Notes: generated from the sequence alone by a model not told the origin. 64,000 bases of DNA from Alloascoidea hylecoeti (GCA_001600815.1 BCKZ01000016.1:361077-425076), one strand, 5' to 3'; positions 19,534 to 57,037 are shown, counted from the first letter of the stretch. Made by a program: numbers and translations.

Positions 19534-19669
19534 AGATATAAAAGTTTGTGTATCATTAATTATTTTCCCCATTTTTTTTTTTTTTTTTTTTTCATCTTAT
19601 AATCATATTTTTGCAACTATAAGAAAAAGTAAGATAAATATAGCTATAGATTTATATAATGAAATAATT

Positions 19670-20403: not shown

Positions 20404-20446
<43 letters not shown>

Positions 20447-22237: not shown

Positions 22238-22284
<47 letters not shown>

Positions 22285-22593: not shown

Positions 22594-23673
22594 TTAATTC
22601 TGACGAGCAAAAGGAACAGTTGCAGGATAAGCTTGAACGGGGATCTGCATCGGTATAGGTATAGAAGGTAATGATTCAGAATTAAAATTCAGAGAATTAT
22701 TTTCAATTTGTGGAATTATACCCATTTGACCACTACAAGCATTAATATCAAATTGTAATATTTGAATTGCTTCTTCATTTGTTTTTAATTTATCACAATC
22801 ATTCATATGAGACATTAATAATCTTTTTAATTTATCAATATGAGTATTTAATGATGATATATGAATATTTAAACCTTGAATTTCCATTTGATAGAATTTT
22901 GCGTCAGATTGAAGTTTTGATAATTCTTGTTTTCTTCTTTTACGACAATTGGAAGCGGCAATTCGATTTCGTTCGAGTATTCTTTCCTTTTTCTCAGCGT
23001 CGTTAAATTTTGACGATAAAATTGAATTATTACTTGTTGGAGAAGTACTATATTTTTCATCAGCGGTGGTATTTGTAGTTGTAGTGGCGGATGGAATTGT
23101 AGGAGAAATAGAAGAAGAATCACTATCCCTTGAATCAGAATTTAAGGATTGTCTTTTTGTGTGGACAGATAGCGGAGTCTGGTCATCTATTTCCAACTCT
23201 CTTTTAACGACGGGAACTGTTTTGGGATCGTCATTTGTTGGAGGTTTCTTTGGGTCTTCGATTTTCGTGTCCGATGGATTTGCGGCGAAAGACGCATCGT
23301 TCTCAGGAGTTCCAAAGTCGTTTAGAAACGAAAAGCCTGGGGTCAGCATTGGCTGGGCACCCGCATTGTAGGGTTTGACGTGTGCAGAGGAGGATGTCAG
23401 GGGAGGGTTGACGTTGTTCATGTCCGGGAAATAGCCCTGCGAGGTGGTGCCGTTGAGGAAGGGAGTGAGGCCCGTGTAGGGGGTGAACCCGGTCCCCAGG
23501 GTGGCTCCCGTCAGGGACGAGATGAAGCCCGGGGTGAAGAGGCCGCTGGTGACGGCCTGGGCGTCCAGGGAGGCGGCCATCGAGGCCAGGGAGGGGGCCA
23601 GTGTGGAACTGAGCGGGTCGGGAGCAGGCACGGCGGATCTTGTGGGCGACATGACGGTTCGTGTCTGGTACAT
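22594..23673 (-). CDS. ATF/CREB-family bZIP transcription factor (Atf1/Aca1/Sko1-like)
   Basis: Basic region ILERNRIAASNCRKRRKQ with a leucine zipper ending LLMSH..C. N-terminal TGFTP.TGLTP repeats resemble the Atf1 HRR region. Confidence 0.85.
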   Translation of the reverse strand: MYQTRTVMSPTRSAVPAPDPLSSTLAPSLASMAASLDAQAVTSGLFTPGFISSLTGATLGTGFTPYTGLTPFLNGTTSQGYFPDMNNVNPPLTSSSAHVKPYNAGAQPMLTPGFSFLNDFGTPENDASFAANPSDTKIEDPKKPPTNDDPKTVPVVKRELEIDDQTPLSVHTKRQSLNSDSRDSDSSSISPTIPSATTTTNTTADEKYSTSPTSNNSILSSKFNDAEKKERILERNRIAASNCRKRRKQELSKLQSDAKFYQMEIQGLNIHISSLNTHIDKLKRLLMSHMNDCDKLKTNEEAIQILQFDINACSGQMGIIPQIENNSLNFNSESLPSIPIPMQIPVQAYPATVPFARQN

Positions 23674-23994
23674 GTTGGCGACCAGAACACGGGGGGACCG
23701 AGGCTGTTATATGCGCCGGGCGAGCAACCCCAACCCCCAACCTTAATCGGCGCACGTGACGCGCCGGGTGACATCATCCTCGCGCGGACGGTCTGGGACG
23801 GTCTGGGCCTGGCTGCACCCGGGCTGCACCTGGCCTGCACCGGCTGGGCCTGCACCTGACCGATGATATCATAAACCTGCCAGCCTGTGTGTGCAGCCCA
23901 ATGTAGCGGAATGGCAGAATGGACATATATGTTGCGTCTGCACTCCACCGCTGACACCAGCCAGTATTTATCTTCTTCCCAGGCCGTCCCTCCC

Positions 23995-24061
23995 ATCCCC
24001 CCATCCCCCCGTCCACCCCGTCCACCCCCGTCCACCCCCGTCCACCCCCGTCCACCCCCGC
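23995..24061. repeat. C-rich tandem repeat, about 5 x GTCCACCCCC, directly before the SPO73-like ATG
   Basis: ccatcccccc gtccaccccg tccacccccg tccacccccg tccacccccg tccacccccg c. Confidence 0.9.
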
Positions 24062-24065
24062 GGAA

Positions 24066-25398
24066 ATGCTCCGGACTCTGTCGCTGAGACGGAAACACTC
24101 CAAATCCCAGATCCAGCCGCAAGCCATCGACATCCACTTCTCCGATGCTTCGAACACAAACAGCGCCTCCTCCTTCCTGCCGTCACACTCCTCCGACCCA
24201 TCTAAACACAAATACCACTCGTCTCACAGGTCCTTAAACCTCGATCCCTCCACCCTGAACAACCTGAACCGTTATTTCTCCACTTCTTCAAAATTGTCCT
24301 ACTTGAATACCGCCGTTCTTGACAAAAATGATGTCTCAGACCCTTCAAACCCAAAAATCCCTCTGCCAACCGTTAGTGGCCCTAACATTTCGGTGAAGAA
24401 TGATGGAAACTCCGTTTTTGAAGTCCTCATTGAAAATCAGCGGGGTTTGTTTTTTGCCGGAATCCCGCTTTTCTCTTCTCGTTCTTTGTTTCAACTAGAT
24501 CCTCCATCCTGGACTACTGCTAAAGGTCAAAAGGCTCTAGGTGATGCTAGCCTTTATCCATTACCCGATCCCTCTTGGAGGTGGAAGTGGGACAAATGGT
24601 ATGTTAATATGGCCTCAGATGTTGATCATCAAGGTTGGACTTATTCTTTACGGTTTAGATCTAAATCTTGGCATGGAAATCATCTTTGGTTTCATTCTTT
24701 TGTAAGAAGACGGATATGGGTTAGATTAAGAGTTCGTATCCAACAACAACAACAACAACCCGTTGTAGTTGATGAAAATATCCACGAAGAAATTCACACT
24801 AATATTATCAATGATGAAATTGCTAAAGATATTACCATTAAACCTGAATCAAATGAATTAATTGTAACCCCGAGTACTATTGATAGCTCTGCAACAAATC
24901 CAATCTCTCCTTCAAAATCTTTTGTTTCAAAAGCAACTACCGTTGAAACCCCAAAACCTGATGCTATTTACGATGTTCTTGATTATTTCCAACCATTAAT
25001 TGATTGTACTGATATTATTAATGATTTAAAATTAGATCTTAAAAATTCTAATATAGATCGTGAAAAAGTTGATAAAATTATATTATTTTTTGAAAAAACA
25101 ATATCTTTTACAATACAAGAATATTATGCAAAACATCAAAAATCAATTAGTATATTACATTATTTTTCTAAATCAACAAATGAAATTATAAATGAATTAG
25201 AATTTTCTGAAACTAAAAAAAATTTATTAAAAAGATTAACAACAATTTTTAATAAATTATTAAATTTATACGCTGTTATTACTTCATCTTCAAGAAGTTA
25301 TACAATGTCATCATTTGATTTTAATTCAACTGTAAATAGAAGAAAAACTGATGTTCTTTCAAAAAGATCAAATACTATGAAATCCACATTTACAAATG

Positions 25399-25450
<52 letters not shown>

Positions 25451-25697
25451 AACCACAAATAATAGAAAAAGATCTTCATCATTACCTTTTTCACCACAAT
25501 CTACAAAATCTTTTGAAAAATCTATAAATCAAATTGATAATCAAATTGATGATGATGATCAACCACCAGAAGATTATAAATTATATATTGATGCTGTTAT
25601 AACACAATTGACAAATATTATTGACAATATAATGACTAATATTTTTAAACATGGATATGAAAATCCTGACGATGATCTTTGGTTAAAAAAAAAATAA
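24066..25697 (+). CDS. SPO73: Dysferlin (DysF)-domain protein, Spo73/Mug65-like, with long C-terminal extension
   Basis: EVLIENQRGLFFAGIPLFSSRSL..LDPPSWT...YPLPDPSWRWKWDKWYV.M..DVDHQGWTYS..F....WHG......FVRRRIWVRLR. Confidence 0.75.
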
Positions 25698-25744
25698 TTA
25701 CATTACATATATATCTTTATACTTATACATTTTGAAAGTTGTTG

Positions 25745-25856
25745 TTTATATTTATGTTTATATTTATGTTTATATTTATGTTTATATTTATGTTTATGTT
25801 TATGTTCATGTTCATGTTCATGTTCATGTTCATTTTTTATGTTTATATTTATGTTT
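25745..25856. repeat. Compound microsatellite (TTTATATTTATG)n / (TTCATG)n
   Basis: Read directly from the sequence; it explains the spurious HE/HK/YK ORF 25703-25885. Confidence 0.85.
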
Positions 25857-26342
25857 TTTATATCTGAGCTAGGTGGTTGCATCAATATTTTCGAAAAGCA
25901 TATATCTTTTCCAGTATTTTAATGTTTACCATTCTAGTACTAGTTTATATCGTTACGAACGTTATGGAGGGTGTTATAGAAATTTGATAGTCAACTAATA
26001 ATCATATATGCATTTAATTTATATTTTTTAATTAACATTAATTTTTATTAAATCTTCTTTTAAAATTATGTCAATATTTATGGTGTCAATAATTTCAAAA
26101 AATTAGCTTTGTGACGTCATATTCATATTCTTTTTGAATCTTGATCATATTAGAGTTTTATCGCCGTTTCATATCAGAGTTTTGTTGTACAAAGCTATAA
26201 CGACGATAAAACTCTTTAGATACAAAAAATTATATCAAAATGAATATTGTTACAAATTCTGCTTGCTAGCAAGATATAATAAATTATATATATCTTCTAA
26301 ATATCGTATTTTTAATCCTATCCATAAGCGATAATTCATACA

Positions 26343-28531
26343 ATGATACAAGAAATTGAAATGGCTCATGTTAGCACTATAGATACAGATGATCTTCCCC
26401 CATCATATAGCCGTTTGTACAAAACCGATATGTTGTACAATACAATTGCAATGGATAATACAAATAAAAGCCTAAGGCATTATGATGTAATGACAACCCT
26501 TGGAAGCTTACGAGATAACAAAATCAATGTTAATAGATTGGGGATTGATCCGTTAGAAGAACTTGAACCGATTGAAACAAAAGAACACAATTCAATTAGA
26601 CTTTGGCAGCGGATAATTAACACCTCATTTCACAGAATCTTCATGATTATACTCTCGGTTTTAATGTTCGTTATCTTTAATAACATCGTTTATACTGGAA
26701 TAATAGATAATGAACTTTTATTGATTCAAAATAGCAAAGAACAATTGATTACCTATACCACCCCTAAAAATTCAATTTCGTCTAATTATAATATTAATGA
26801 TATTCAATATAAAGGTTTGTTAGGGTCTCTTAACTATCAATCAATTAAATATATTAATTCATCTGATCTAATAGTTAATACTTTTAATACATCAATATAT
26901 AAAACAATATCTCATACAACAAATCAATTTCAAAATTCTTTAATTCAATTAACAAATATTTCAATAAATATTTCAAACCAAACAATTTCAACTTATTCTA
27001 ATGTCTTAAACTCTACAATAACAAATATTTCAAATAATTGGAGAAATACATCTTCATCACTATTAAACTTAAAAAATGAATTACAACAAGAAGCACTTTT
27101 TGTTGGTGTTGAAGGATCTAAAAGAGTATCATTTGATGAAATGATTCTTAATTCATCTTGGATTGATAATTTAATACAAAATAATAATATTTCTTTATCT
27201 AATTTAGTAATATATAATGATTTAATATCTTCAAAACAAAATTTTATAAATCAATTATCTTTTAAAAATGAAACTGAAATTATTATTTTTAAACTTCAAA
27301 ATATTTTAAATGAGTTTTCAAATAATTATAAATCAAATGTTACAAATTTGATATTAAGTTTTAATACTTCAATGATAAATAAAAATTACACTAAAAATTA
27401 TGATTATAATGAAATGAAATTACAAAATCAAACGAAATCAACTGACAAAATTAATATAAAATATTCTACAGAACTTGAAGATTTATATTATTCAAATTTA
27501 ATTGATGCTAAAACTTCTATTAATCTATTTACAAAGGTATTTTACATTACTTGCATACCAATCATTGTAATTACAATATTATATATTTTTTACGAAAGCT
27601 TATTTCATAATAGTTGTTTAAATTTAAATTTGGATACAGATATCCATCTTGACCAAAAATTTTCTAATGATCACTCAAATGTTTACATGATAAATTCAAT
27701 ACCAAATATCATTGTAAATAAAATGAATAAAATAATTGCATATGATGATAATTCTTCAACTTATAATTATATTTATTGGTTTTCAACATTTGTATTCTCA
27801 AGATATATGCAACTTCTTTTCCAAATGACAATTTTTTCATTTTGTTTCTATCTTATACAAATACCATTTTTAACAGCATTAGAGGAGTGTAAGCAAAAAA
27901 ATGGATTGATTGATTATAACAAACAATTACAAAATAAGCGAGAATTAATTGACGATAAAGTTACTGCTACCCAGTGTATATGGTACTCTCAAGTTCTTCA
28001 AGATGTTCAGTCACAGCAACAGAAATTTAATTATCAACTTGGTCAATTAGCTAAAATAGCTATGGACAACTCCTCTAATGAAACAGATCATTTCATTGAA
28101 TCCATAACGAATAAAGTCGATGAAATGTTCACCAACACACCTAATCTATTGCAAAAGGTGAGAAGATTTACAATCAATTAATTGTAACATTTATACTAAC
28201 TTAATTTCTTTTTCTGTAGTCTGTTAAAAATATGGTTCCAAAATATATGGACATACTTAGATCCACAAATATGTTTTATGAATCCATAATTTCTAATTCA
28301 AGTATTTTGAATTTAGATTTGACCCTATCGCCTTGGTATACTACAACATGTACAATCCCAACACATCATAAAAATTCCAATCATTTAAACCCCATACAAC
28401 CCCCTAATATTCAAAAACTGGTCGATATATGTCGACAGATTATAACAATTTTGGGAATTTCCTGTAGTGTCTTTTCATGTTTGTGGCTTATTTCTCTAAT
28501 TATCTATGTGTATATAAGAGTCCGAGTGTAA
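26343..28531 (+). CDS. PRM1: Multi-pass glycosylated membrane protein, divergent Prm1-like; intron 28158-28219
   Basis: Topology of TM, long Asn-rich N-glycosylated loop, TM, loop, YWFSTFVFSRYMQLLFQMTIFSFCFYLIQIPFL (Prm1-like W..Y.....L....L....Q..L), coiled region and terminal TM. Intron GTGAGA..TACTAAC..TAG joins ORF 28232-28531 in frame. Confidence 0.6.
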
Positions 28532-39793: not shown

Positions 39794-40282
39794 CTATACG
39801 TGTGTATGGGAAGAAGAGCCACCGGCCAGATCTGTGGTGACATGTCTCTTAGTCCTATAATCCTTGATGGCGCTCTTTATAGCATCCTCCGCGAGCATCG
39901 AGCAGTGCAGCTTGACGGGGGGTAGTGCCAGCTCCTTCGCTATCACGTTGTTCTTGATTTTGGAGGCTTCTTCCAGCGTCTTCCCACGAACCAGCTCCGT
40001 CACATAGGAGCTCGATGCAATAGCACTGCCACACCCAAACGTCTTGAACTTGACATCTGATATTATTCCATGGTCGTCTACTCTGATCTGAAGTTTCATG
40101 ACATCCCCACAGGCAGGAGCACCCACTAGCCCAGTCCCAACATCTGCATCGTTTTTATTCATTGATCCAACATTGCGCGGATTGTTGTAGTGATCAATTA
40201 CCTTGGCGTGATATAGTCGTTTGGTGAGAACCACAGCTGGGCGTTCGTATCGTATGGCTTGTTTTAGCGAGCGAGAAAGCAT
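39794..40282 (-). CDS. ISU1: Mitochondrial Fe-S scaffold IscU
   Basis: YHAKVIDHYNNPRNVGS, GAPACGDVMKLQI, FGCGSAIASSS and LPPVKLHCSMLAEDA. Confidence 0.98.
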   Translation of the reverse strand: MLSRSLKQAIRYERPAVVLTKRLYHAKVIDHYNNPRNVGSMNKNDADVGTGLVGAPACGDVMKLQIRVDDHGIISDVKFKTFGCGSAIASSSYVTELVRGKTLEEASKIKNNVIAKELALPPVKLHCSMLAEDAIKSAIKDYRTKRHVTTDLAGGSSSHTHV

Positions 40283-40498: not shown

Positions 40499-42514
40499 AT
40501 GTCAGAATCGGAAAATACGCCCACAACTGGAGAAAATAACTTCCCAGCCGTTGAAAATTTGTCTGCCGAAGCCACTGACGCGTCTATACCAGAAACTTCA
40601 AATCTTTCGACGGTGACCACCAAAGATGAAAAACCAGATGTCAAACAAGAAGTAACAAATACATTGGAAAATAACACGTACATATCTAATGATATCGTTA
40701 ATTCATCTGAGAAAGCGTTCGCTGATGATAATACCTTAACTCCCGTGGTTGATGACGATGGTGATGCCTCAATGCGAGACGCGACGCCAACCCCCACACC
40801 TGCACCATTCACTATAAAAGAACCAACAAGTACACCACAGGCAGATCAACCTTTACCGGACCCAGAAGCCTTTTTATCTATGCAGCTAAAACCGGTTGCT
40901 CTTCCCATTTTTTCGAGATGGTTCTCATTTGACTCGATTAACGAACTTGAGAAGAAGTCTTTACCACAATTCTTTAACTCCCAATCTTTATACCATACAC
41001 CCCAAGCTTATCAAAAAATCAGAAATTTCATTATTCAGACTTGGCGTTTAAATCCAAACCAATACTTGACAATTACTGCGGCAAGAAAAAATGTAGCTGC
41101 TGATATCGAAAGTGTAGTATCAATTCATCGTTTCTTGAGTAAGTGGGGGTTGATCAACTATAATGTTGATGGGAGCACAATTCCCAGTGCTCTGGGACCT
41201 CAATCAACTAGGGGCTTCAGCATTGTTTTAGATACCCCTGTTGGTATCCAAGCTTTGGTTCCTGAAGTTAAGCAGACGGATAAAGGGAAATCATTAGGTA
41301 TAAAGAGACGGTTTGAAGAAGACCAACCGAAGCAGAATTCAGGTATGAAAGTGGAACCAGATACTATAACCAAGGATGAGGATCGTTCATTACCTTTAAA
41401 TATGGAATTGAGGAAAAATATTTATGATCCTAGTGTTGATTCTACTGCTTTGCAAGATGAAAATCAACTTCGAATAAACGATGTTAATAATAAAACATTC
41501 ACGTGTTATCTAACTGGATCACAAGTAACTGATGTTCACTTTAATTCTTTAAGGTATAAAGGCGTTAATGGACATGCTATTAATGGAAATGTGACCTCTT
41601 TGAAAAATGGGGGTTTTCCAACAGAAAATAATGCAGAAACTGGTATTGTCAATTTGGAAGATGTCTTCAAGAAAGGTGGCAAGTTATTATATCCACCTTC
41701 TATTGCTTGGACTGATCAAGAATTGGTATTACTATTGGAAGGCATTGAGATGTTTGAAGATAACTGGGAACAAATCGCAGATCATGTTGGTACAAGAGAT
41801 AAAAGTCAATGCATCACAAGATATGTCCAATTGCCCATTGATGAACAGTATATCACGAAGAAGAAAATAGAAATGGCTAAAAAAAATAAAAAAGTTGGTG
41901 GAAAATTGGAAATGGAAAAAGTTATATCTTTTTTAACTAATTATGTTGATGAAAATCTAGCTAAGAAAGTTGCACAAAAATTACGGTTAAAGCACCCTGA
42001 AAAGAACCCAGATAATTTCTTTGAGGATGGCTCTACTATGTTAACTAAAGCTTCTACTAAACTTTCTTCAAAACAAACATTTTCCGATATATCTACAGTG
42101 GAGGACCAAGCACTATTAAAACAACAAATTGAACTCACAATATCCAAATTTCAGGCAAAATTGTCGCAAATAACAGCTTTTGAGTCACAGATATCGCAAT
42201 CTTTACACACAATTCAAAAACAAAAAAGACAAATTCTTAATGATAAGTTATCATTACAGAAACAAGCGATATTAGTACTTAACTCACTCCAAAAAACCCG
42301 ACAGTTGACCCTAAACACAACTGGTAATGTTAATTCACAAACCTCACCACTGATGTCTGAGTTGAATGTAATTGTTAATACAAATACAAGGGCGTTGTTT
42401 AAAAAGAGAGATGATAGAACCAAGAAGGATAGTAAGGACAATGGGTCATCTACCAATGGAGAAATTGTTGCTGCTAAAGGAGAGAGCAAACTGTATAATT
42501 ATTGGTTTGACTGA
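40499..42514 (+). CDS. RSC8: SWIRM+SANT chromatin-remodelling subunit (Rsc8/Swi3 family)
   Basis: SWIRM (FSRWF....NELEKKSLPQFF...RNFII.TWRLNP.QYLT.TA.RKN...HRFL.KWGLINY) and SANT (WTDQELVLLLEGIEMF..NW.QIADHVGTR...QC). A degenerate ZZ-like segment favours RSC8 over SWI3. Confidence 0.8.
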   Translation: MSESENTPTTGENNFPAVENLSAEATDASIPETSNLSTVTTKDEKPDVKQEVTNTLENNTYISNDIVNSSEKAFADDNTLTPVVDDDGDASMRDATPTPTPAPFTIKEPTSTPQADQPLPDPEAFLSMQLKPVALPIFSRWFSFDSINELEKKSLPQFFNSQSLYHTPQAYQKIRNFIIQTWRLNPNQYLTITAARKNVAADIESVVSIHRFLSKWGLINYNVDGSTIPSALGPQSTRGFSIVLDTPVGIQALVPEVKQTDKGKSLGIKRRFEEDQPKQNSGMKVEPDTITKDEDRSLPLNMELRKNIYDPSVDSTALQDENQLRINDVNNKTFTCYLTGSQVTDVHFNSLRYKGVNGHAINGNVTSLKNGGFPTENNAETGIVNLEDVFKKGGKLLYPPSIAWTDQELVLLLEGIEMFEDNWEQIADHVGTRDKSQCITRYVQLPIDEQYITKKKIEMAKKNKKVGGKLEMEKVISFLTNYVDENLAKKVAQKLRLKHPEKNPDNFFEDGSTMLTKASTKLSSKQTFSDISTVEDQALLKQQIELTISKFQAKLSQITAFESQISQSLHTIQKQKRQILNDKLSLQKQAILVLNSLQKTRQLTLNTTGNVNSQTSPLMSELNVIVNTNTRALFKKRDDRTKKDSKDNGSSTNGEIVAAKGESKLYNYWFD

Positions 42515-42899
42515 TAATATTGGTTTAAGTTGTAATGTTATAAATATTAATTGAAATTGATGTAAGTATATTATACCATGAATTCCGATAACATTGGTGT
42601 GTGACGAGTTGTTTCCGTCGATATTCTCCGTAACAATCTGTATTATTAAGGTACCATGAGGAACATTATAATGCTTACCATTTGGACACCATCTGCCATC
42701 CTGTTCAATGGTTCAGTGGCAAGGGATGCTAGTGGAGACTTTTAGATTCTTTTTTGCTCTTCTACAAATAACCCTAGTATAAAAACAGATCAGATCTTTC
42801 TTGCTACCGTAAGTGTACTACTCTTCATTACAACCTGCAGCTGTGGACAGCGCGTAATTTCACGGCGATTCAGGATTTTCGAAGATCTCCTACTTCACA

Positions 42900-43796
42900 C
42901 AAATGGCTTTCGTCATACACCTTCGGCTAGAAATATTTAAGTGCAACATTAATTACAAAAACTGTAGAAATATTCCTTATAGGGAAGAAAATCCAATGAC
43001 ACCTCAATTAAGCCTAAAGGATTGGCATGTATTGTATACGAAACGAAGTTGGGCTCTCCAATTGAAGTATTTGAGAAATGATAGACGCGTCCTACAAACC
43101 AGCAATAGTTCTCCACGCGATTCAACACCCAACTGTTCCGAGGACCGAAACTTGTGTCCGAAAGTCAAATATTTTACCTAGGTGTGAATTCGAAGCACAA
43201 TTGGTACGCCTCCTGACCATAATTTGCGTCCAAATTCTCAAAAATATAATAGAAGCCTCACCTCGGCGAAATGTTTGACGAAATTTTCAGAGACACTATA
43301 ATCTTTATATGCGGCAATACTCATGTTCATAAATCTAGTGATATCATGTCGTGGTTGGAAGAGGGAGGAATTAAAGTGATTTGATAGCCTGCATAAATCG
43401 TCAGAATCAGACCCTATTGAGCAGGTCCCAAAATATTTATCGTCAAAACTAAACCAATCCCAATAAAACCATGCGGAAGCAATAAACTCAAATACCTTAA
43501 TTAGGTGAATACTTGGGAAGGTACTTCGGCAGAATTCATACAGATTTCCTCCTCGAAATTGTGTCTTGAAAGTTGAGGGTCATAAATGAGCATTGAAAAA
43601 ATGGTGCTGGTAATGTGGCAGACTAAGCGACTAATAAGCCTTACATTACACTTCAAATAACATAAATCAAAAGAGTAGAATGAGATCTTATTTTTTATTC
43701 CATACAAAGTATTTAATAAATTTTATTTAATACGTGAATATGGTTTTGAAATTTAAATTTTCCTGCAGGGGCCACTTTTTTTTCCCCCCAACTGTA
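42900..43796 (+). mobile_element. Degenerate Tc1/mariner transposon relic with one surviving terminal repeat
   Basis: PQLSLKD...KRSWAL resembles Tc1 'KP.LS......RL.WA'. Positions 43300-43425 translate, with stops and a frameshift, as GNTHVHKS..IMSWLEEGGIKVI**PA*S...DPIEQV, matching DNA..H.....W....GI.V..WPA.SPDLNPIE.VW. The end GGGCCACTTTTTTTTCCCCCCAACTG|TA at 43794 is a CAGT-type TIR plus TA. Confidence 0.7.
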
Positions 43797-44529
43797 TGAA
43801 CATCCATTACATATTGGACTCGAGGACTCTATGTAATAACTGGTCCAAAGATTCTAAATCGTTTGGGTTGGTTCTATGTCAGCCGAAACAGCCTGAACTA
43901 CACTAAATGAATTACTGGTATAATTACCAGTGGAGGTAAAGCCGGAAATGATGCTTCTTTGCTGTCACACGACTTTAGTAATGAGATTTGCCTTTTTGGC
44001 CCATAACTTCCGATTGATAAAGTGACACCTACTTATGGATGGTTGTTGTAGGCCTATAGATAGATCTAGAGTTGAAACAGGAAACATAAAGGGATCATTG
44101 CGTTAGGGAATGGGAGTTAAGAACAGAGAAGTAAGATATGGAATCGTGAGATAAGGTATGGAAATGGTGAAATAAGGATAAAGTTTTAGATATAAAAAGA
44201 TAAGATGATTTCTTAAAAGTTTAAGAAATTTCATCTGCCCATATAGGCCTGTGGCTATAGCTGGCCATGGTCAATAAATTATTATTATCTGATTACTCAA
44301 TTGCATTTTGATTTGTCATTCAGCATGAAAACTTTCCAACTGTTAACTGTCTCACAAGGGTAGAATCCAGTTGCCTTAGCGTTATGAATTTCAACTAATT
44401 TTTAGTGATGTTCGTTGATCAAACCTTCAAGTCTGGCATACCAAAATTTAAGTTCATCTTCATAGGTACAGAGAAACCAGTATTCATCCAATTTGGGAGT
44501 CTTTACATTTATTATCCGTGACAGTTTGG

Positions 44530-47430
44530 TTTCCGAGTTACAGCTACGTGCGTATATATACGAAGTCCACAACAGCCGGTTGCAACAATGTTTAACGTTA
44601 ACAGCAACAATTAACTATTGCAAGAGTAATGTTAATCGTTATATATTGTTATAAGCAATTGAGATTGAAAATCCGCATATATTAACACGCTTTAAACCGA
44701 AGTATATAAATAATAATAATAACTTTTGTAGACCAAATCGAAGTCAAAGGAACCTTAATTAATTAAAGTTATTAATTTGAAGATACAATATTTCCCTTTG
44801 AAAAGCTTTTGTTTATCAATAATAGAATCCCATGTCATACACTCAGGGATTTATACAAGTCGATTTGAATAATCATAATCTATTAGATTTATTGGGTTTT
44901 ATTGGAAGCTAGTTAAAGATATTAGATTAAATTTTATAAATAGAAGGGGGTGGCTGATTATTTTAAGAAAGGAAGGAAAAGAAATAGTTGACAATAAAGA
45001 ATAAAGATTTATTTGGGATAGTTCTACAAATGACCCGTTAGCTCTTATGGCACAAGCAACTCAAGCAATGATGGAGAGTGTCAGATTGATGAGAAGAAAC
45101 CCAACAAGAATAATCTAAAGAAATTGAGACTTTAAAGAGTAGTCAGGTAGAAGTAAACCCATATAATCCTATTATTTTTGGCCACTTTGGATTATTGAAG
45201 ATGTAAAAGAAGCTCATTAATATTGACTAATTTAAATTCGTTTAAGGGTACTCAACCCTAAACTAAAGATAATGGCAAGAATATATCTATTAAGATTGCG
45301 ATTATTTGCAGCAACATTGTAAATTATAATTGAAAATAATATTAATTTAAGTTTCAACGTAAATTTATAAACGGATATACAAATGATTATATGATTATGA
45401 ATGCTTCGGAATTTAAAAGTCCAATCTTATAATAAAGTTAATACAATTTAAAGAATCTATTTCCCCCTTATACAAATATCACTGGGTTCGCATATAATGA
45501 ATATTGGTAAAAGCGGTTCACTATAATTCAATATTTATGTTCACCCAATGTCACCCATATAAACATACAATACAATATAATATAGCTGTGACTTATCAGG
45601 CTCGTATCTGGGACCATCAATATGATACAATATGTAACACATCTTCATACTAGTTTATAGTATAAGTGAAATGGTAAGTCTAGATGTATTGTTTGACATT
45701 ACTATAGTTATATGTAGGAAGGATACTCGGAAGTATGATCATCACGAGGATAAAAAAAGTATTTCGTAATCACAATATAGGCCATATGCGCGATACGAAA
45801 ACACGCGAGTAAGCTGAGGTCAATTCAACATTTTCAATAACTGATTTTAAATTTTAACAATTATATAGCCAAATACGTTACTCTTCCTGACTCTTTATAA
45901 TCGCCATTTAATGTTGCAATGATCACACTGACACTGGTGATGTTTAAATACTAAACCATAAAGCATTTTTGTTCGATCACTTGTTTTTTCACTACTGAAC
46001 TAATTATGGCTTCTCTATTAACATTGGGGAGAGAAAGCCCGTCTACTAACTGTTTATTTGATGATTATGAGCTCTTTATCTAACACATATTGTATAAAAA
46101 TATATATTCTTGTTATTAAAATAAACAAAGTTAGTACAATATCTATATATTTAGCTCATATTTAATAATAGCTTATAGCTAGTCTTATAAATCTTTATAT
46201 GTGGTGGTTATAAATAGCAATATACGCTCTATCTGCTCATATAAGCTGATATTATCGTAGAACTGACTCTCTACTGACAGACTCTTGTTCAAAACGTATT
46301 ATATTTATTTAATGCTTCCAGAACAACTTAGTATAGGTATACTATGTACTTTATTTCTATATTTGTCTGTGGCTAATATATATAAATTGAGTTGAGCTGC
46401 AGTATAGCAACAACTGTCAAAGTATGCATATGCATGTGAGAACAAATCGCAAGTACACAACTCGAGCTCTTATAATTATTGTTGAGTTGGAAATTGTGCA
46501 ATAATTGAATATTTAATTATATTCATGAATATACTCTCTAATCTTTTAATATTTCTCTACTCCACTCAATAACATCTATAAGAGACATGACAATTGCCCC
46601 AATACCCCGATATAACATTAGAGTTCATCCCGTTGAACTTTGGAGAACCTGGTACACAAACAATAAAACGGAAATATTGGAGATGGAAGCAGACACAGAT
46701 CACTCGAGAATAATGAACGTCATCGAGCATGCTGAGAAGTACAGAGTGATACTTACTGGGGATTTGAGATTTTTAGATGAGGTTGAAAGACTGTCTCAAA
46801 GAAGATATCTTCAAAGTTATGATTATATTGATAAACTTCTCCATCCCACCACCTGGGCTCCTTTACTAACAGGTCGCGAAAGAAGCGAGTTTGACAAGCA
46901 ATTAATCAAATTCTATGAAGATCACAAAGGAGAGAGTGAAGTATTAAGACCAAACCCCCAGCCTCTTCGCAACGCTTCTCTATCTCTGATCATTATGGAC
47001 TTTGACAATAACGTACCTGCAGCTGATACTGGGATTCAGACTCAACCGACTCAGAGACCGGCCATACAGTCACTTATAGAACAGTCAGCAACTTCAAACC
47101 TAGTTCCTGATCAAGTACCTATACAGACACCTATGGATCACTTGACAGTTGTAAACACAGTTCCCTCTCAATCACGATCAGCCGAAACTTTGCAAGAACG
47201 TTTACAAAGTGCTTCTAGTAATTATCCTTGGAATGTGAATATTATTCTTGCACATTCAATGAACCAAAACTATACATACGGAGCTTAAAGAATAACATCG
47301 CTCCAATTATGACATTATTTATAGCTATGATCAAAAATATTAATGCTTGCTCTTTTGAAATTGTCTTTTAGTTTCTGTTTTCCTTTTAAAGGGTTCTCTA
47401 AGAACACTAGTAATTGTAATTATGATTATA
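44530..47430 (+). repeat. Left arm of a 2901-bp inverted repeat
   Basis: Reverse complement of 48493-51393. Paired coordinates sum to 95923 at both ends and at the ORFs, so there are no net indels. No mismatch was seen in the segments compared. Confidence 0.97.
46587..47288 (+). CDS. Orphan 233-aa protein, copy 1 (left arm)
   Basis: Intact ATG-TAA ORF, more GC-rich than its flanks, with TATATAAA about 200 bp upstream; identical to 48635-49336. Confidence 0.6.
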   Translation: MTIAPIPRYNIRVHPVELWRTWYTNNKTEILEMEADTDHSRIMNVIEHAEKYRVILTGDLRFLDEVERLSQRRYLQSYDYIDKLLHPTTWAPLLTGRERSEFDKQLIKFYEDHKGESEVLRPNPQPLRNASLSLIIMDFDNNVPAADTGIQTQPTQRPAIQSLIEQSATSNLVPDQVPIQTPMDHLTVVNTVPSQSRSAETLQERLQSASSNYPWNVNIILAHSMNQNYTYGA

Positions 47431-48492
47431 ATATAACGATTTGTATCAACAATATTTGTACTTTGATTTAATTGTAAGTCATCTTGTAAACAACGAAAAA
47501 TAAATAGATATTTTCAAACATAAGGGTATTTATACAACTGATAAGTTAAGCTTAACATTATCATATTCTATTAATACTTTACCTGAACATGAAATTAATT
47601 TTATTCGTTATAATTATGATTCTATCAAATCAGAACTATCAGTTACATATGATTATGGATTGAACTGTCAAGTATCCATATATATTGTTTTATTGGTACA
47701 AACTTGAATTGCAGCCAACCCCAATATCCAGTGGGATTTTTTAAAATATTTTCACAGCACTTTGCGATTACATGGAATAGAATGGTATTAAAATATGTAT
47801 TCACGTAGAAACGGTCTGCATCTCTAATAATTATAATCTTCCCATATATTGTACTAATATAGCTTTTATACTGACAACTCTAGCTATATAGTCATATTCA
47901 GACCATCTACAATTATATGCCAAACTTTCACTATAGCGCTCATGACTATTTACAATATATTAATATACAGTGTTGGGATTATTGAGCTACTCAATCAGTT
48001 CATTCTTGTTTTTATTCTTTCTGTCTTTTTCAGTTATAACACATTTTAAACAATTATATTTTACATTTTGAAACTGAAGTGATAGTTATACTGTATTATT
48101 TTATCGTTTGCTATGTCTGCTCATCGTAATTCATACTCATCTGGGTTCATCATTTATTAATCGCCTTCTCTAGTCTTTAATTTAAATCTTTTAAAAGTTA
48201 ATAAAAGTTTAATTAACCTACTCCTCTTTACAAAATTTACAGTTCTCGTCTCATACGCGACCATTTCTTTTTTATACTTTCGCGCTGAACTCAGTGAATC
48301 ATCTTTCAAAAGAAATTACATATCCAATGATTTGTCTCTTAAATATTAGCTCTTTTATCATTTGCATTAAGCAAACTAAACAGAGATTTGTAATTGAAGT
48401 ATTCAGATCATTTCCATTCATTATTATTCGATTCCAGTGGGTTGAATTATTTAGAAGGAAGAAGATCCACTCTGATTTAGTTCTCCTTAACC
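47431..48492. other. 1062-bp unique AT-rich core between the inverted arms (candidate centromere core or invertible segment)
   Basis: Bounded exactly by the inner ends of the two arms; no recognisable gene. Confidence 0.6.
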
Positions 48493-51393
48493 TATAATCA
48501 TAATTACAATTACTAGTGTTCTTAGAGAACCCTTTAAAAGGAAAACAGAAACTAAAAGACAATTTCAAAAGAGCAAGCATTAATATTTTTGATCATAGCT
48601 ATAAATAATGTCATAATTGGAGCGATGTTATTCTTTAAGCTCCGTATGTATAGTTTTGGTTCATTGAATGTGCAAGAATAATATTCACATTCCAAGGATA
48701 ATTACTAGAAGCACTTTGTAAACGTTCTTGCAAAGTTTCGGCTGATCGTGATTGAGAGGGAACTGTGTTTACAACTGTCAAGTGATCCATAGGTGTCTGT
48801 ATAGGTACTTGATCAGGAACTAGGTTTGAAGTTGCTGACTGTTCTATAAGTGACTGTATGGCCGGTCTCTGAGTCGGTTGAGTCTGAATCCCAGTATCAG
48901 CTGCAGGTACGTTATTGTCAAAGTCCATAATGATCAGAGATAGAGAAGCGTTGCGAAGAGGCTGGGGGTTTGGTCTTAATACTTCACTCTCTCCTTTGTG
49001 ATCTTCATAGAATTTGATTAATTGCTTGTCAAACTCGCTTCTTTCGCGACCTGTTAGTAAAGGAGCCCAGGTGGTGGGATGGAGAAGTTTATCAATATAA
49101 TCATAACTTTGAAGATATCTTCTTTGAGACAGTCTTTCAACCTCATCTAAAAATCTCAAATCCCCAGTAAGTATCACTCTGTACTTCTCAGCATGCTCGA
49201 TGACGTTCATTATTCTCGAGTGATCTGTGTCTGCTTCCATCTCCAATATTTCCGTTTTATTGTTTGTGTACCAGGTTCTCCAAAGTTCAACGGGATGAAC
49301 TCTAATGTTATATCGGGGTATTGGGGCAATTGTCATGTCTCTTATAGATGTTATTGAGTGGAGTAGAGAAATATTAAAAGATTAGAGAGTATATTCATGA
49401 ATATAATTAAATATTCAATTATTGCACAATTTCCAACTCAACAATAATTATAAGAGCTCGAGTTGTGTACTTGCGATTTGTTCTCACATGCATATGCATA
49501 CTTTGACAGTTGTTGCTATACTGCAGCTCAACTCAATTTATATATATTAGCCACAGACAAATATAGAAATAAAGTACATAGTATACCTATACTAAGTTGT
49601 TCTGGAAGCATTAAATAAATATAATACGTTTTGAACAAGAGTCTGTCAGTAGAGAGTCAGTTCTACGATAATATCAGCTTATATGAGCAGATAGAGCGTA
49701 TATTGCTATTTATAACCACCACATATAAAGATTTATAAGACTAGCTATAAGCTATTATTAAATATGAGCTAAATATATAGATATTGTACTAACTTTGTTT
49801 ATTTTAATAACAAGAATATATATTTTTATACAATATGTGTTAGATAAAGAGCTCATAATCATCAAATAAACAGTTAGTAGACGGGCTTTCTCTCCCCAAT
49901 GTTAATAGAGAAGCCATAATTAGTTCAGTAGTGAAAAAACAAGTGATCGAACAAAAATGCTTTATGGTTTAGTATTTAAACATCACCAGTGTCAGTGTGA
50001 TCATTGCAACATTAAATGGCGATTATAAAGAGTCAGGAAGAGTAACGTATTTGGCTATATAATTGTTAAAATTTAAAATCAGTTATTGAAAATGTTGAAT
50101 TGACCTCAGCTTACTCGCGTGTTTTCGTATCGCGCATATGGCCTATATTGTGATTACGAAATACTTTTTTTATCCTCGTGATGATCATACTTCCGAGTAT
50201 CCTTCCTACATATAACTATAGTAATGTCAAACAATACATCTAGACTTACCATTTCACTTATACTATAAACTAGTATGAAGATGTGTTACATATTGTATCA
50301 TATTGATGGTCCCAGATACGAGCCTGATAAGTCACAGCTATATTATATTGTATTGTATGTTTATATGGGTGACATTGGGTGAACATAAATATTGAATTAT
50401 AGTGAACCGCTTTTACCAATATTCATTATATGCGAACCCAGTGATATTTGTATAAGGGGGAAATAGATTCTTTAAATTGTATTAACTTTATTATAAGATT
50501 GGACTTTTAAATTCCGAAGCATTCATAATCATATAATCATTTGTATATCCGTTTATAAATTTACGTTGAAACTTAAATTAATATTATTTTCAATTATAAT
50601 TTACAATGTTGCTGCAAATAATCGCAATCTTAATAGATATATTCTTGCCATTATCTTTAGTTTAGGGTTGAGTACCCTTAAACGAATTTAAATTAGTCAA
50701 TATTAATGAGCTTCTTTTACATCTTCAATAATCCAAAGTGGCCAAAAATAATAGGATTATATGGGTTTACTTCTACCTGACTACTCTTTAAAGTCTCAAT
50801 TTCTTTAGATTATTCTTGTTGGGTTTCTTCTCATCAATCTGACACTCTCCATCATTGCTTGAGTTGCTTGTGCCATAAGAGCTAACGGGTCATTTGTAGA
50901 ACTATCCCAAATAAATCTTTATTCTTTATTGTCAACTATTTCTTTTCCTTCCTTTCTTAAAATAATCAGCCACCCCCTTCTATTTATAAAATTTAATCTA
51001 ATATCTTTAACTAGCTTCCAATAAAACCCAATAAATCTAATAGATTATGATTATTCAAATCGACTTGTATAAATCCCTGAGTGTATGACATGGGATTCTA
51101 TTATTGATAAACAAAAGCTTTTCAAAGGGAAATATTGTATCTTCAAATTAATAACTTTAATTAATTAAGGTTCCTTTGACTTCGATTTGGTCTACAAAAG
51201 TTATTATTATTATTTATATACTTCGGTTTAAAGCGTGTTAATATATGCGGATTTTCAATCTCAATTGCTTATAACAATATATAACGATTAACATTACTCT
51301 TGCAATAGTTAATTGTTGCTGTTAACGTTAAACATTGTTGCAACCGGCTGTTGTGGACTTCGTATATATACGCACGTAGCTGTAACTCGGAAA
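48493..51393 (-). repeat. Right arm of the 2901-bp inverted repeat
   Basis: Reverse complement of 44530-47430. Confidence 0.97.
48635..49336 (-). CDS. Orphan 233-aa protein, copy 2 (right arm)
   Basis: Translation identical to 46587-47288. Confidence 0.6.
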   Translation of the reverse strand: MTIAPIPRYNIRVHPVELWRTWYTNNKTEILEMEADTDHSRIMNVIEHAEKYRVILTGDLRFLDEVERLSQRRYLQSYDYIDKLLHPTTWAPLLTGRERSEFDKQLIKFYEDHKGESEVLRPNPQPLRNASLSLIIMDFDNNVPAADTGIQTQPTQRPAIQSLIEQSATSNLVPDQVPIQTPMDHLTVVNTVPSQSRSAETLQERLQSASSNYPWNVNIILAHSMNQNYTYGA

Positions 51394-52619
51394 ACAAATT
51401 GTAGTAAAATAAAAAAAATATCAATTCCTTTGAACTCAATTTAATAGTATTCATTTAACTTCCTTATTATTGCAAAATATCTTCCTATCTAATTTTCCAA
51501 CTCTTGGAAACTGGTATAAAATATATAGCTGCTCTAGACTGTGATCGTACGATATACCTATCCATTGCAATATTTATTATCAACTAAATGTAATCATGGT
51601 TAAATTCACCCTTAAAAATGTTGTTAACTACTATGATACTAGTACTGTAAAAAAAACACTCTATGTGTCCGACAACTGCGCATGAAGCTATATTTGGATA
51701 TTCCTACCCAGAAATCATTTAGTATATTGAACAATAAGATCAAAGATAGTATGACTTATAGCTAGCTATAGTATGATGATACTATGATCTATCGGTTTCA
51801 CTGATTGGAAAAATAATCATGTATTTCGCCCAGAACAAATAATATTTCAAATTTCCCTCCCACGTGTACAATTTTCAAATATTAATATAATTATTGGTTG
51901 TGTATTTGTTTAAAACAAAGTCTGGTATGGCAAACCACAATCTGTATCTACTATCTAGATTTATTATATGATATATCTCTATATGTCAAGACTACTACAC
52001 TTAAGAAAAAACCATAAATGTTGCTATATATGTATATAAAACTTATAATTAGGTGGTTGCAATTGTGTTAAAACAGATTCAAGATGTATTATATTACCTT
52101 AAAGTGATCATGTATTGAGTAACCTGTAACAATGTGGTCCCATTGAAATAAATTGAGGGTTGAAGATTCAAACTTAAGTTGAGTTTCCTGTGATCACTTG
52201 TTTCTAAATATAATATGGTGAATATTTTCAAATCTTCTCGTGATTTTGCGTGGGATATCGGCATACTGTACATCTATCTTAAACTTGATGTAAGACTTTT
52301 AGTTGTCATAGAACTTAGATTGATCCTGCTTATATTGTAGGGGTCTGACACCGATGCCTTTGGAGCTCTAGATGTGTTTAATATATATGATAATTATAAA
52401 CGATCAAGCTTAAGAGCGATGTTAGGGCCCCCCATTGGCATGGTTAACTGAGCATTGTATGAGGAGAAAACGGAATTGATCATCCAGGTCCAGAAATCAA
52501 TATTGGGGCTCTAGGTATATATATGGAGTTCAAATATAAGGGTTAGAGTGATTTTACGGGGTTTTACATATTTTGTGAATTTATAAGAATTTCCGAGATT
52601 TAATTTTGTTTTAGGGCTC

Positions 52620-52923
52620 AAATCAGCATAAGTGTATCAACACCATCACATTTACACTTAAATATTCTATAAGACGCATTTTTTTCTTCTTCTTCTTTTC
52701 TCTTCAACGCAAATTTAAACGATCTGAAGTTGTTGGGATTTTCCCATCAACATTTAAAGCGTGTATACGAGGGCGCCCATTGTGTGTTGCCCCATGACAT
52801 AATACATTTTTGATATTCAGATTGAGAGAGCAAATAATCGATCTTGGGTGCAGCATTTCATTTGAATAGCTTTGTCTTTTCTAAAGGTTCCCTTCGTGGT
52901 CCTGAATGAGATTTGGTGCAATG
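52620..52923 (-). pseudogene. Possible decayed coding fragment of unknown family
   Basis: About 100 codons in one frame with two internal stops (HCTKSHSGPRREPLEKTKLFK*NAAPKIDYLL...WGNTQWAPSYTRFKC*WENPNNFRSFKFALKRKEEEEK...). Confidence 0.3.
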
Positions 52924-53302
52924 ATCGGTAAAACATTTTAATTTATTTTTAACTTAAAGATAGTTTATATTTTATGTTTTGTTTTTCGTATTTGTATGAG
53001 TGTAAAATTTTTATGATGAATTTTAGGAAAACTGTTAACTTATGATAATTACAACTGAAAGATTTGTAGGTTATATTTGTAGCTCGTGTGCTCATTCAGC
53101 GAGCTGTAGTATCAATTGTAGTTAATTCAAAGGCCTTATGGTTACATTGTTTTATTATATTTGGTAGAAAAAATTGGTACGCGTATGTAAAAACTCCACA
53201 TTACACCCTTATAATTCTTTGGAATTCACCTTTCAAATCTTCATCTTGAACACACTAAAAGTTTGTTGATATACACTATAGATTATAACCATAACGACGG
53301 AA

Positions 53303-54587
53303 ATGACATCTTTAGAATATGGAATTATAGAAAATTTACAATTTCCATATGGTGATGGAATAAATACAGACACGTCTCAAAAATCTAAATACAATAAAAT
53401 TATATCTAATAGAAATAGTTTATCACGCACTCTTCTATTTGATAAACTTGTTAATGAGATGAGTAACGGGAAAATTGATAGTATGTTTTCGCAAAACCGT
53501 TTATAGATATTGAATTTTGCTAACGAAATCTGAAAAATTAGGTCAAAAATTTTATCCACCAACATCTTCGAAACAACTTATATATTTTATCAATGAAATC
53601 AATAAACAAATATCAAATACATTAAAAAAGACTTGCATTATCTATTATATCCTAAAAGATTATGGGGCTGATGATGAAGGGATAAAAGTATCTGATTATT
53701 TCAATAATAATGGGTTATTTGAACCAGAAGATATTGCGACCAACTTATTCTTTAATTCAACAAAATTACCGGAGAACTATAAAAATTTAATTGATGGACT
53801 GTATAATATTGATAACCTAGAATTTGATGTCGGTTTGAGTTATCTTATAAGGTCAAATATCCAGCCTACGTATTACGAAGAGATTATTAGCTATTTTGCA
53901 AAAGCTGATGAGTTGCATCAACCTAGACCAGCACATTATTATATTTTAACTTATATTTCAGTCACTCATCCCCCTTTAAACAATATGAATACAATTCTAC
54001 TTTATGTTGACTCGTTAATCAGTAACAATATGATTTTTGAATCTTTTAAAGAAATCCGTGCGTTGTCTGCCGATGAAAATAATAATTTAAAACAATTAAA
54101 AAATTTAGATGGAGAATCAGATGATAAAGATGATGATGAGACATCAGGGTCAATTTATGGCAGTTTGCTGCGCCATATTCTTAAAACTTTGATATTGAGG
54201 ACAATTGTCATCAAAAGTAATAATAAATATTCAAAAGACTCAAAAGATACTGAGGCATTAGGTACACCATTATTAATTGCAAATCTTTCAAGGAATTTTT
54301 TATCCGATGAAAGATTACGGGAAGTGTTGAACGATTTTATAGTTGATGATAAGAAAAGTATAGTTACACAAGACAACTTGCAACAGATTTATGGTTTTGA
54401 TATTACAAAAATTGATTCAATGAGTAATTACTTGATTGGTGTGAATAACGATTTTAAAATTATATCTAGAAATATCATCATACTACGGGGACTTCATTTG
54501 AACGAGATTGGAAAAGACTATACTGATAATAATAATGATGAGATGGAGGTGATAACAGATGTAAATAATGTATTGGTGTCAGTATAG
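53303..54587 (+). CDS. ELYS-like nuclear pore assembly protein (Ely5-like), intron 53481-53541
   Basis: FPY...I..NR..L...LLFDKL, YPPTS..QL......I......KK.CIIYYILKD and LP..Y..LIDGLY.ID..EF..GL.YL fit the ELYS domain. Intron GTATGT..GCTAAC..TAG joins the two ORFs in frame. Confidence 0.75.
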
Positions 54588-55155: not shown

Positions 55156-57037
55156 ATGATGAGACTACGGGTAATGTGTCCGAGCGAATTTCGAGCTGTG
55201 GGACGACAGAGCATGCACTTTTATGACAAATCGAAAGGCTGCAATAGGTTTAATCGATTGTTTTCGGCAGCACAGACCCCAAGATGCCTAGCTGTTGAAA
55301 CTCAAAGGATAGACAAAGAGGTGGCCGAAAGAACTTTAACAACAACCCTAAGTTCACATGAGATTCCCATGGGCAGGAAGGAGCCCACAAATGGCACACA
55401 AATTTCCAACCCCAGCTCATCTTCTGCAACACCTTCTGAAAATTTGGTACCCATTAAAAAGGTGGATGTTGAAATAAAATCTTGTGATTCTTTAGGATCA
55501 AGAGTTATGCCAGAATATATTCGTATGCACACAATTACAACGTTATACTTTTTAAATAATTCTATTTTATTGAAACTTATACTAACCTAATCATGATCGT
55601 GAACATGATCATCTCTTTATTATTTAGCTAACCATAATTCAAAATTGCACACTATGATATGGAATGCGAGTAACAGACTACGAAATATATTCATCATCAA
55701 GAAACCCTACATCCCCCATGTAAGAAATGCAATGATTACATTTATCAAGTATGTGTATTTCGGAGGTATCGCGTTTAATATACTCATGACCTAATTCAAT
55801 TTCCTTTAATTATAGTCATATTCATGCAAAATATCCTGATATAAACATTATAGTCGAGCAAGAGACGGCCAATGAACTTCAACATGAGTTCAGAATTAGA
55901 GATTATATAGAGTCAGAAATTGGAGAAATCGAAGTCAATTCTCAAGTGAAGCCATTAATAAGGACGCAATCCTTATATACAGGAACACACCAAAAAATCG
56001 CCAAGAAAGCAGACTTGATTGTGACTTTAGGAGGTGACGGAACAATTCTGAGGGCCGCCTCGTTGTTTTCAAGAGAGTTAGTACCACCGATACTAAGTTT
56101 TTCTTTGGGTACCTTGGGATTTTTATTACCATACAATTTTAAAGACCATGAGGAGGCATTTTCTCAAGTAATTAGCTCACGGGCAAAAGTTATGAATCGA
56201 ATGCGACTACAATGCCACGTCTATCGACAAGAAAAACATTATAGACATAATCACCACCCCTTTGAACCACAACACTGGACCCAGCGTTATTCAGATACTA
56301 CCCGAAAAGATCTTATAGAAACCCCACTCATGACAGGAACAGTGGAAGCCGCTCAAAGATATCACAGTCAAAAACACAGCTCTTTATCGGTATGCCATGC
56401 TATGAATGATATTAACATTCATCGTGGCTCTCAACCGCATTTAACTACACTAGATATAAAAGTCGATGGTAATTTCTTGACACGCACAATAGGCGATGGT
56501 GTTTCAATTTCAACTCCCACAGGCTCAACGGCATATTCATTATCTGCTGGCGGCTCGATTGTTCATCCTTTAGTTCCATGTATCCTTCTAACCCCAATTT
56601 GTCCGAGATCACTAAGTTTTAGGCCTGTTATTTTGCCTGCAAGATCTCGGATAGAAATTTTAGTAGCTAACCAATCAAGAAGCACAAGCGCCAAGTTAAA
56701 CATTGATGGTATATCACAAGGTGAACTTTCTGCAGGAGATGAGCTCCGTGTGATGTCTGAAGGTCATTCTTTATATTTTTCAAATTATATGAAGGATGCA
56801 GAATCTGCTAAACAGATTGGCACGAATAAATTGATTACAACATCCGATATTAACCAAAAGGGAGCTTCATCGCGAAATGCCTCGACAGATAAATTGAACA
56901 AACACATTAACTCACAGCAGCTTAATGATAAGGGAATATGGTGTGTAGCCAGGACGGAAAATGACTGGACCGGTGGATTGAATGAATTGCTTGGTTTTAA
57001 TTCTTCTTTTGGTGGTTCCAAGTCTGACCATAAATAA
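55156..57037 (+). CDS. POS5: Mitochondrial NADH kinase, introns 55523-55627 and 55749-55815
   Basis: SKLHTMIW...RNIFIIKKP, DLIVTLGGDGTILRA, FSLGTLGFL, MNDINIHRG and STPTGSTAYSLSAGGSI; Arg-rich N-terminus. Confidence 0.92.

Follow-up and report, generated by a model that had tools for sequence, protein, structure and literature searches.

To our knowledge, centromeres built on inverted repeats (IRs) are known in few groups, namely Komagataella, Pichia kudriavzevii, some Candida, some Barnettozyma and the fission yeasts. The four centromeres of Komagataella phaffii, one per chromosome, are described in PMC5010909 as IRs of 2012-2699 bp with 0-1 differences that enclose mid regions of 883-1330 bp, with total lengths of 5354-6655 bp; they are located in non-transcribed regions of 6-9 kb in a compact genome, and their identification is supported by Cse4 chromatin immunoprecipitation sequencing (ChIP-seq), replication timing and Hi-C. 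For Barnettozyma, the account in PMC12711049 gives centromeric IRs of 0.5-4.3 kb with 99-100% identity, which coincide with Hi-C peaks in long intergenic regions, are present on only 3-5 chromosomes and are supported in their function by Hi-C; those of B. californica measure 2.4-4.3 kb and are reported there to have no similarity between chromosomes. The centromeres of P. kudriavzevii, as described in PMC6053246, consist of IRs of 7.9-14.5 kb and a centre of 8-18 kb with tRNA genes and Ty3 pseudogenes and are free of protein-coding genes. Whether the IR centromeres of ascomycetes are ancestral or originated repeatedly is a question raised in PMC5010909 and addressed in PMC12711049. A comparable structure away from a centromere is the macro-palindrome of Saccharomycopsis schoenii, for which PMC13148404 reports two arms of 8.5 kb with 99.98% identity and a spacer of 2019 bp; it is located at the MAT cassette, its arms hold MAT and SLA2, and the authors propose a switch. 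Here we analysed a stretch of 64,000 nucleotides from the budding yeast Alloascoidea hylecoeti (GCA_001600815.1 BCKZ01000016.1:361077-425076, hereafter the window), which contains a perfect IR around a short unique core. Judged by its resemblance to the described systems and by its setting, we give an even chance to the reading that this locus is a small IR-type regional centromere of its chromosome.

The initial annotation had described two identical arms of 2901 bp and a core of 1062 bp, and these coordinates and lengths proved exact by base-by-base comparison, in which 44530-47430 and the reverse-complemented 48493-51393 agree without a single mismatch. Arms and core add up to 6864 bp, and a perfect IR of 2.9 kb cannot be attributed to chance. 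A repeat finder returned arms of 2919 nt with a spacer of 1044 nt, extending by 9 nt at each end through mismatches, and blastn extended the homology by 9 nt solely on the outer side, which gave arms of 2910 bp at 99.93% identity; the 2 mismatches lie at 44524 and 44529. In these outermost 9 nt (to 44521) 7/9 positions are complementary, and the inner 2901 nt are perfect; a hand estimate from the base composition puts the chance of at least 7/9 complementary positions at about 0.003. Such an outer edge next to a perfect interior weakly favours, as far as the sequence goes, a homogenised interior with decaying edges over a brand-new duplication.

In their dimensions the IR and core resemble the K. 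phaffii centromeres almost number for number (IR of 2901 bp with 0 differences, mid region of 1062 bp, total of 6864 bp, gap of about 10 kb, against the ranges given in PMC5010909), and the likeness drawn in the initial annotation was upheld to this extent. As in IR centromeres, near-identical inverted copies of a few kb surround a unique centre of about 1 kb. The length and identity of the arms are also within the range reported for Barnettozyma in PMC12711049, and the general layout of an IR with a unique centre in a gene-free region is shared with P. kudriavzevii, Candida tropicalis and Schizosaccharomyces pombe as these are described in PMC6053246 and PMC5010909. The IRs and centre of P. 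kudriavzevii are, however, much larger than those found here, and the centromeres of S. pombe are flanked by heterochromatic otr repeats according to the same two papers. Furthermore, the host is not close to Komagataella, as indicated by the matches of its RSC8-like protein.

Some long-read libraries are known to produce perfect palindromes artificially, and one arm might have been duplicated in the assembly by a chimeric or fold-back read. Coverage had been named at the outset as the check for such a single-arm artefact. Six public sequencing runs contain the stretch or part of it, and we used the four with at least half of its words (X1-X4), which represent three samples from three studies; two of these samples are possible sources of the window itself. 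All four were read as contigs at k=31, which leave the orientation of the core unphased and in which the arms collapse into one contig because a perfect repeat must collapse at this word length. In 4/4 runs the arm contig (44919-47430) was about twice as deep as left flank, core and right flank, which are given here in this order: 118.8 versus 57.6, 60.8 and 59.5 in X1; 46 versus 21.1-26.1, 21.8 and 22.6 in X2; 18.5 versus 10.4, 9.86 and 10.8 in X3; and, less cleanly, 12.9 versus 6.7-7.1, 10.8 and 9.1 in X4. Contigs break at 44530, 47430 and 51393, the ends of the arms. The core is a single contig of 1122 nt (47401-48522) that overlaps the arm by 30 nt at each end. Both core ends connect to the inner end of the arm contig, whose outer end leads into two different flanks. 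The sole layout that satisfies this contig graph is flank, arm, core, inverted arm and flank, and an assembly artefact is therefore extremely unlikely; the two copies are upheld by the short-read contigs of all three samples. The locus is a real two-copy IR that is perfect in three samples. Position 43676 carries T>G in X3 and X4 and not in X1 or X2, and arms and core were free of variants in every run, so at least two genotypes share the identical repeat. Since this is the only difference listed over the 9 kb compared, the age of the repeat is little constrained.

The setting of the IR is unusual within the window. Among open reading frames (ORFs) of at least 120 amino acids (aa), ORF-free gaps of about 4 kb each were found at 42515-46586 and 49337-53302, as opposed to gaps of at most 1.9 kb elsewhere in the window. 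In the bins 44-46 kb and 50-52 kb coding-like fragments made up 0%, versus 33-100% in nearly all other 2-kb bins, the first of which is under-counted owing to an open-ended ORF. Neither flank gave a Pfam match of note or a coding-like fragment, and nothing similar to the left flank occurs elsewhere in the window. The region had been described as the only long interruption of genes: the two ORF-free gaps are indeed unmatched in the window, and the whole gap of about 10 kb (42515-53302) is its gene-poorest part, yet it contains two intact copies of an ORF and the snR10 gene (Table 1).

Each arm consists of 2057 bp of upstream DNA, the 702-bp ORF and 142 bp of downstream DNA; both copies point towards the core, and their stop codons lie 142 nt short of the inner ends of the arms. 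The frame of the ORF comprises 248 stop-free codons; 500 shuffled versions of the arm gave 82 on average and at most 175. Its codon log-odds per codon were +0.27 in frame versus -0.53 and -0.41 out of frame, with values of 0.10-0.48 for the genes of the window. A word-indexed search with the arm protein returned its self-match only, and an exhaustive phmmer search found 16 homologues at E<=1e-3, six of them at E<=1e-10, with relatives 31-44% identical over the N-terminal ~140 residues. A profile search added proteins of Yarrowia and Geotrichum candidum that are labelled 'hypothetical' or 'no similarity'. Two N-terminal motifs are conserved in the family, P-T-P-x-Y-x4-H-P-x-E-x-W-x2-W-Y and Y-E-Y-x-D-x-L-x5-W-x-P-x-L-T-G-x-E-R-x-E-F-D. 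No Pfam family was detected in the arm protein and 15 relatives, and the family profile had no sequence match in the PDB. A structure model from the single sequence was poor (predicted local distance difference test, pLDDT, of 34); the alignment-based model predicts with confidence an N-terminal domain of ~125 residues (mean pLDDT 61.8), for which comparison with known folds gave 0 Foldseek matches at E<=0.001 and a best VIA-align Z of 3.8. On this sequence evidence the ORF is an intact gene of an uncharacterised yeast protein family, and the description of the arms as decayed non-coding DNA in the initial annotation does not hold, since each arm has an intact ORF of 233 aa with gene-like codon usage and homologues.

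The presence of this gene leads to the main rival of the centromere reading, a palindromic duplication without centromeric function, in which an inverted copy of a 2.9-kb unit with a gene of a fast-evolving family was placed at a distance of about 1 kb. The identity of the arms would then result from recency or gene conversion, and the low gene density would be incidental. An arm amounts to little more than a single gene and the DNA upstream of it, the gene has several relatives at 30-44% identity in its family, as might be seen in a duplicating family, and with so little divergence between the strains, the identity of the arms across samples is no argument for an old age. The macro-palindrome described in PMC13148404 also provides a precedent for near-perfect arms that contain genes and flank a short unique spacer off the centromere; the locus described here likewise has near-identical inverted arms with a gene copy in each and a short unique spacer, an arrangement that is compatible with a centromere as well. 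It differs from S. schoenii in that its arm gene is of unassigned function and its surroundings are gene-poor. A duplication of this kind would leave unexplained about 2 kb of non-coding DNA per arm and a further 2.0 and 1.3 kb outside the arms; in arms and flanks together, non-coding DNA totals ~7 kb, and gaps elsewhere in the window do not exceed 1.9 kb. The repeat is, moreover, apparently not brand new, with both mismatches confined to its outermost 9 nt, and its dimensions coincide closely with those of the IR centromeres described in PMC5010909. We therefore consider a plain palindromic duplication possible but on balance doubtful. The two explanations are not exclusive, as an IR centromere may start as an inverted duplication.

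Several observations weigh against a centromere. The intact, codon-biased ORF with homologues in each arm is at odds with the K. phaffii centromeres, which are transcription coldspots in the description of PMC5010909, whereas here the snR10 gene for a small nucleolar RNA (snoRNA) is also situated only 1.3 kb from the right arm. The descriptions of P. kudriavzevii, C. tropicalis and S. pombe in PMC6053246 and PMC5010909 likewise mention no protein gene in the IR, and here there is one per arm. Absence of protein genes from IR and centre is thus a feature of described IR centromeres that this locus does not share; it is, however, how the K. phaffii and P. kudriavzevii centromeres are described in these papers, and not a strict definition. 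As for the core, reported as AT-rich in the initial annotation, it does exceed the rest of the locus in AT content (GC content of 28.0%, versus 31.9% for the arms and 33.6% for the 64-kb window), but it is only mildly AT-rich: no stretch of 100 bp with at least 85% AT was found in 42.5-53.5 kb, and many such stretches occur at 17.9-27.4 kb of the same window, where the much more AT-rich DNA is nevertheless coding. In S. schoenii, moreover, a near-perfect, gene-bearing palindrome with a spacer of about 2 kb exists off the centromere (PMC13148404). Support from synteny was not obtained either. The protein collections searched held no relative close enough for a synteny comparison; the names RSC8, ISU1 and POS5 are absent from the main text of PMC12711049, in which gene maps are given as figures, and these three together with YND1, RPL5 and NOT5 are absent from its three text supplements. 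Literature searches with those gene names and centromere, and for centromeres of Alloascoidea, returned nothing relevant.

A 2025 bioRxiv preprint describes an NTH1-UGA2 block as centromere-linked. The aldehyde dehydrogenase encoded at 12332-13840 is of ALD4 type by its best PDB matches, with no succinate-semialdehyde dehydrogenase among the 60 PDB chains listed for it, and by sequence is probably not UGA2; this block is therefore not evident here. A YND1-like gene is also among the flanking genes of the locus. In S. cerevisiae, YND1 lies a few genes from CEN5.

Long terminal inverted repeats define some transposons, and the locus might accordingly be a mobile element, either a 6.9-kb foldback transposon with long terminal inverted repeats (TIRs) or two inverted insertions of 2.9 kb. 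A short patch of the arms does recur elsewhere in the genome, as seen from depth and contig joints. It consists of 42 nt shared exactly (44907-44948) and 35 nt shared with 2 differences (45017-45051), 77 nt in total, and its other copy lacks the 68 nt between the two parts, which are skipped by the contig joints. The 42-nt patch contig reached 3.6x the depth of the flank in X1 (208.8 versus 57.6), and contigs of 1679-1879 nt with the patch run into sequence unlike the stretch. A second copy was absent from the window by blastn, and the exact 42-mer had 0 matches in metagenome contigs. The patch is reminiscent of the small patches that are shared between some K. phaffii centromeres (PMC5010909) and of a 460-bp patch at 75% identity that is common to two Barnettozyma centromeres (PMC12711049), as reported in these papers.

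The remaining evidence on a mobile element is negative. The arm depth of 2x implies that there are no further copies of the arms. Among 53 frame fragments of at least 45 aa from the gap and its edges, 0 had a transposon or retroelement Pfam match at E<=1, and the only real Pfam matches belonged to the flanking ELYS and NAD-kinase genes; transposase, reverse transcriptase and integrase families were found in 0/36 frames of at least 45 aa from the left flank, left arm and core, the right arm being identical to the left. A coding-potential scan of the gap revealed nothing besides the arm ORF, apart from weak fragments of 19 and 12 bits in the core. The only match of the gap to the window by blastn was the IR itself, and tblastn of 77 window frames of at least 80 aa against the gap gave 2 trivial matches (12 aa, E 0.011; 31 aa, E 0.063). 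The transposon and pseudogene debris that the initial annotation placed on both sides of the repeat was thus not recovered by any of these four kinds of scan. No direct repeats were found inside an arm or the locus, and hence no long terminal repeats (LTRs); nor were TIRs found within the arms, or, by eye, a target-site duplication at the outer ends. Tandem repeats at the locus were trivial ones only, and arm and core had no enriched 7-9-mers, with AT-rich words occurring at most 4-7 times. The Ty5-type tRNA-iMet primer-binding motif was present only with 2 mismatches, in 3 places versus 0.82 expected; 7/100 shuffles reach 3, which is chance level. Highly decayed LTRs would escape the Pfam, repeat and primer-site tests alike. 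These results make a mobile element a very improbable source of the repeat. A centromere formed by a cluster of Ty5-like retrotransposons was considered separately and rejected, as there was no retroelement Pfam match, no direct repeat and no primer motif above chance level.

The geometry of the locus also permits inversion of the core, and the initial annotation had listed an invertible switch as an alternative. Recombination between the arms of such a switch would flip the core and thereby alter the expression of a gene, for which the MAT loci of Ogataea and Komagataella are examples. IR-mediated inversion is reported in PMC5010909 for both the centromeres and the MAT regions of K. phaffii. 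The longest stop-free frame of the core, however, has 93 codons, the only coding-like signals in the core are the two weak fragments mentioned above, the core frames contain no homeodomain, HMG, alpha-box or other Pfam family, and the core has no Rfam match. The arm genes and the 2 kb of DNA upstream of each are wholly contained in the identical arms. With no gene in the core and the arm genes inside identical arms, flipping the core would alter nothing for either copy, and we regard such a switch as very unlikely.

An IR centromere therefore remains the best available reading, and of the initial annotation's case for it the structure and the likeness to IR-plus-core centromeres are real, while the arguments from debris and decayed arms fail. 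From the likeness to described systems we infer kinetochore function, homogenisation and core inversion at the locus. Under this proposal CENP-A (Cse4) nucleosomes would occupy the core together with the inner portions of both arms, and intrachromosomal gene conversion or recombination would keep the arms identical. The same recombination would flip the core now and then, without consequence. The arm gene would be silenced by centromeric chromatin or would be situated at its edge.

If this is true, a centromere of K. phaffii size in an isolated, intron-rich yeast with the standard code would be an independent data point for the origin of IR centromeres, and a gene within the arms would bear on the coexistence of centromeric chromatin and transcription. 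A confirmed centromere would be of the K. phaffii type and unusual in having an intact gene per arm. A more far-reaching version, which we consider quite unlikely, is that of a working centromere far from the known IR-centromere lineages whose arms each carry an intact member of an uncharacterised, fast-evolving protein family, with paralogues in the arms of other centromeres. The only hints in this direction come from two relatives of the arm protein, P0123 and P0129, which are encoded on Logan contigs of 2824 and 2826 nt, close in length to the contig of 2901 nt with the arm gene of the window. Should paralogues of the arm gene sit at other centromeres, centromeric IRs would be units with a resident gene, and both would be duplicated and homogenised jointly. 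If, on the other hand, the locus is a plain palindromic duplication, it is an ordinary structural variant, and IR-plus-core geometry alone is insufficient to call a centromere.

The coordinates of the locus and of the neighbouring genes are collected in Table 1.

Table 1. Features of the inverted repeat locus and its surroundings, with positions counted from the first nucleotide of the window.
Feature	Position	Strand	Remarks
Left arm, perfect inverted repeat	44530-47430	+	2901 bp, 0 mismatches to right arm
Right arm, perfect inverted repeat	48493-51393	-	2901 bp
Unique core (mid)	47431-48492	.	1062 bp, GC 28.0%, 1x contig
Left non-coding flank	42515-44529	.	2015 bp, GC 36.4%, depth 1x
Right non-coding flank	51394-52705	.	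1.3 kb, depth 1x
Arm gene, left copy	46587-47288	+	intact 233-aa ORF
Arm gene, right copy	48635-49336	-	identical 233-aa ORF
Short patch common to other genomic place(s)	44907-45051, mirror 50872-51016	.	by depth and contig joints
ISU1-like gene, just upstream of RSC8-like gene	39794-40282	-	Pfam NifU_N E=3e-53
RSC8-like gene (SWIRM, Myb, SWIRM-assoc), left boundary	40499-42514	+	Pfam SWIRM E=1e-25, Myb E=6e-10
snR10 H/ACA snoRNA gene	52706-52938	+	Rfam RF01258, 79 bits (gathering 70), E=1.4e-14, full model
ELYS-like nucleoporin gene, right boundary	53303-54587	+	Pfam ELYS E=6e-25; exon 1 from ATG 53303
Intron in ELYS-like gene	~53482-53541	+	GTATGT..GCTAAC..TAG, by eye
POS5-like NAD kinase gene, after ELYS-like gene	~55156-57037		Pfam NAD_kinase and NAD_kinase_C
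Short introns in POS5-like gene region	55524-55627, ~55750-55826		read by eye

The host is a budding yeast of an isolated, long-branched lineage, as judged from its protein sequences. The best named homologue of the RSC8-like protein among the matches listed was that of Wickerhamomyces ciferrii at only 38% identity, and no Komagataella protein was among the 120 matches listed. In a quick tree of RSC8 the placement of the window was unsupported, and its branch had a length of 2.89; it is these distant relatives and the long unplaced branch that indicate the isolation of the lineage, with which the early divergence assumed in the initial annotation would be compatible. RPL5 chains matched with 544 bits for Kluyveromyces lactis, 537 for S. 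cerevisiae and 525 for Candida albicans, the organisms being assigned partly by reading of the entries. All CTG codons of the ISU1-like gene (5/5) align with Leu of yeast Isu1, which points to the standard code.

Short introns of the GTATGT...TACTAAC...AG type were recognised by eye in the POS5-like and ELYS-like genes, with GTATGT or GTATGC, a (T/G)CTAAC branch site and AG as their signals. The ORFs of RNase PH, IPP transferase and a BRO1-domain protein start well inside their Pfam models, and together the gene structures suggest that multi-intron genes are common in this yeast. Outside the locus, the window has a gene for the U4 spliceosomal small nuclear RNA (snRNA) at 14052-14200 on the plus strand, with a score of 100.7 bits. 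A GC island at 23000-24500 (55.8% GC at 23001-24000) stands within the most AT-rich part of the window (18000-28000, 18-27% GC) and spans the upstream region of a bZIP gene along with the Ala/Pro/Ser-rich N-terminal part of that gene; the AT-rich ORFs adjoining it encode poly-Asn proteins.

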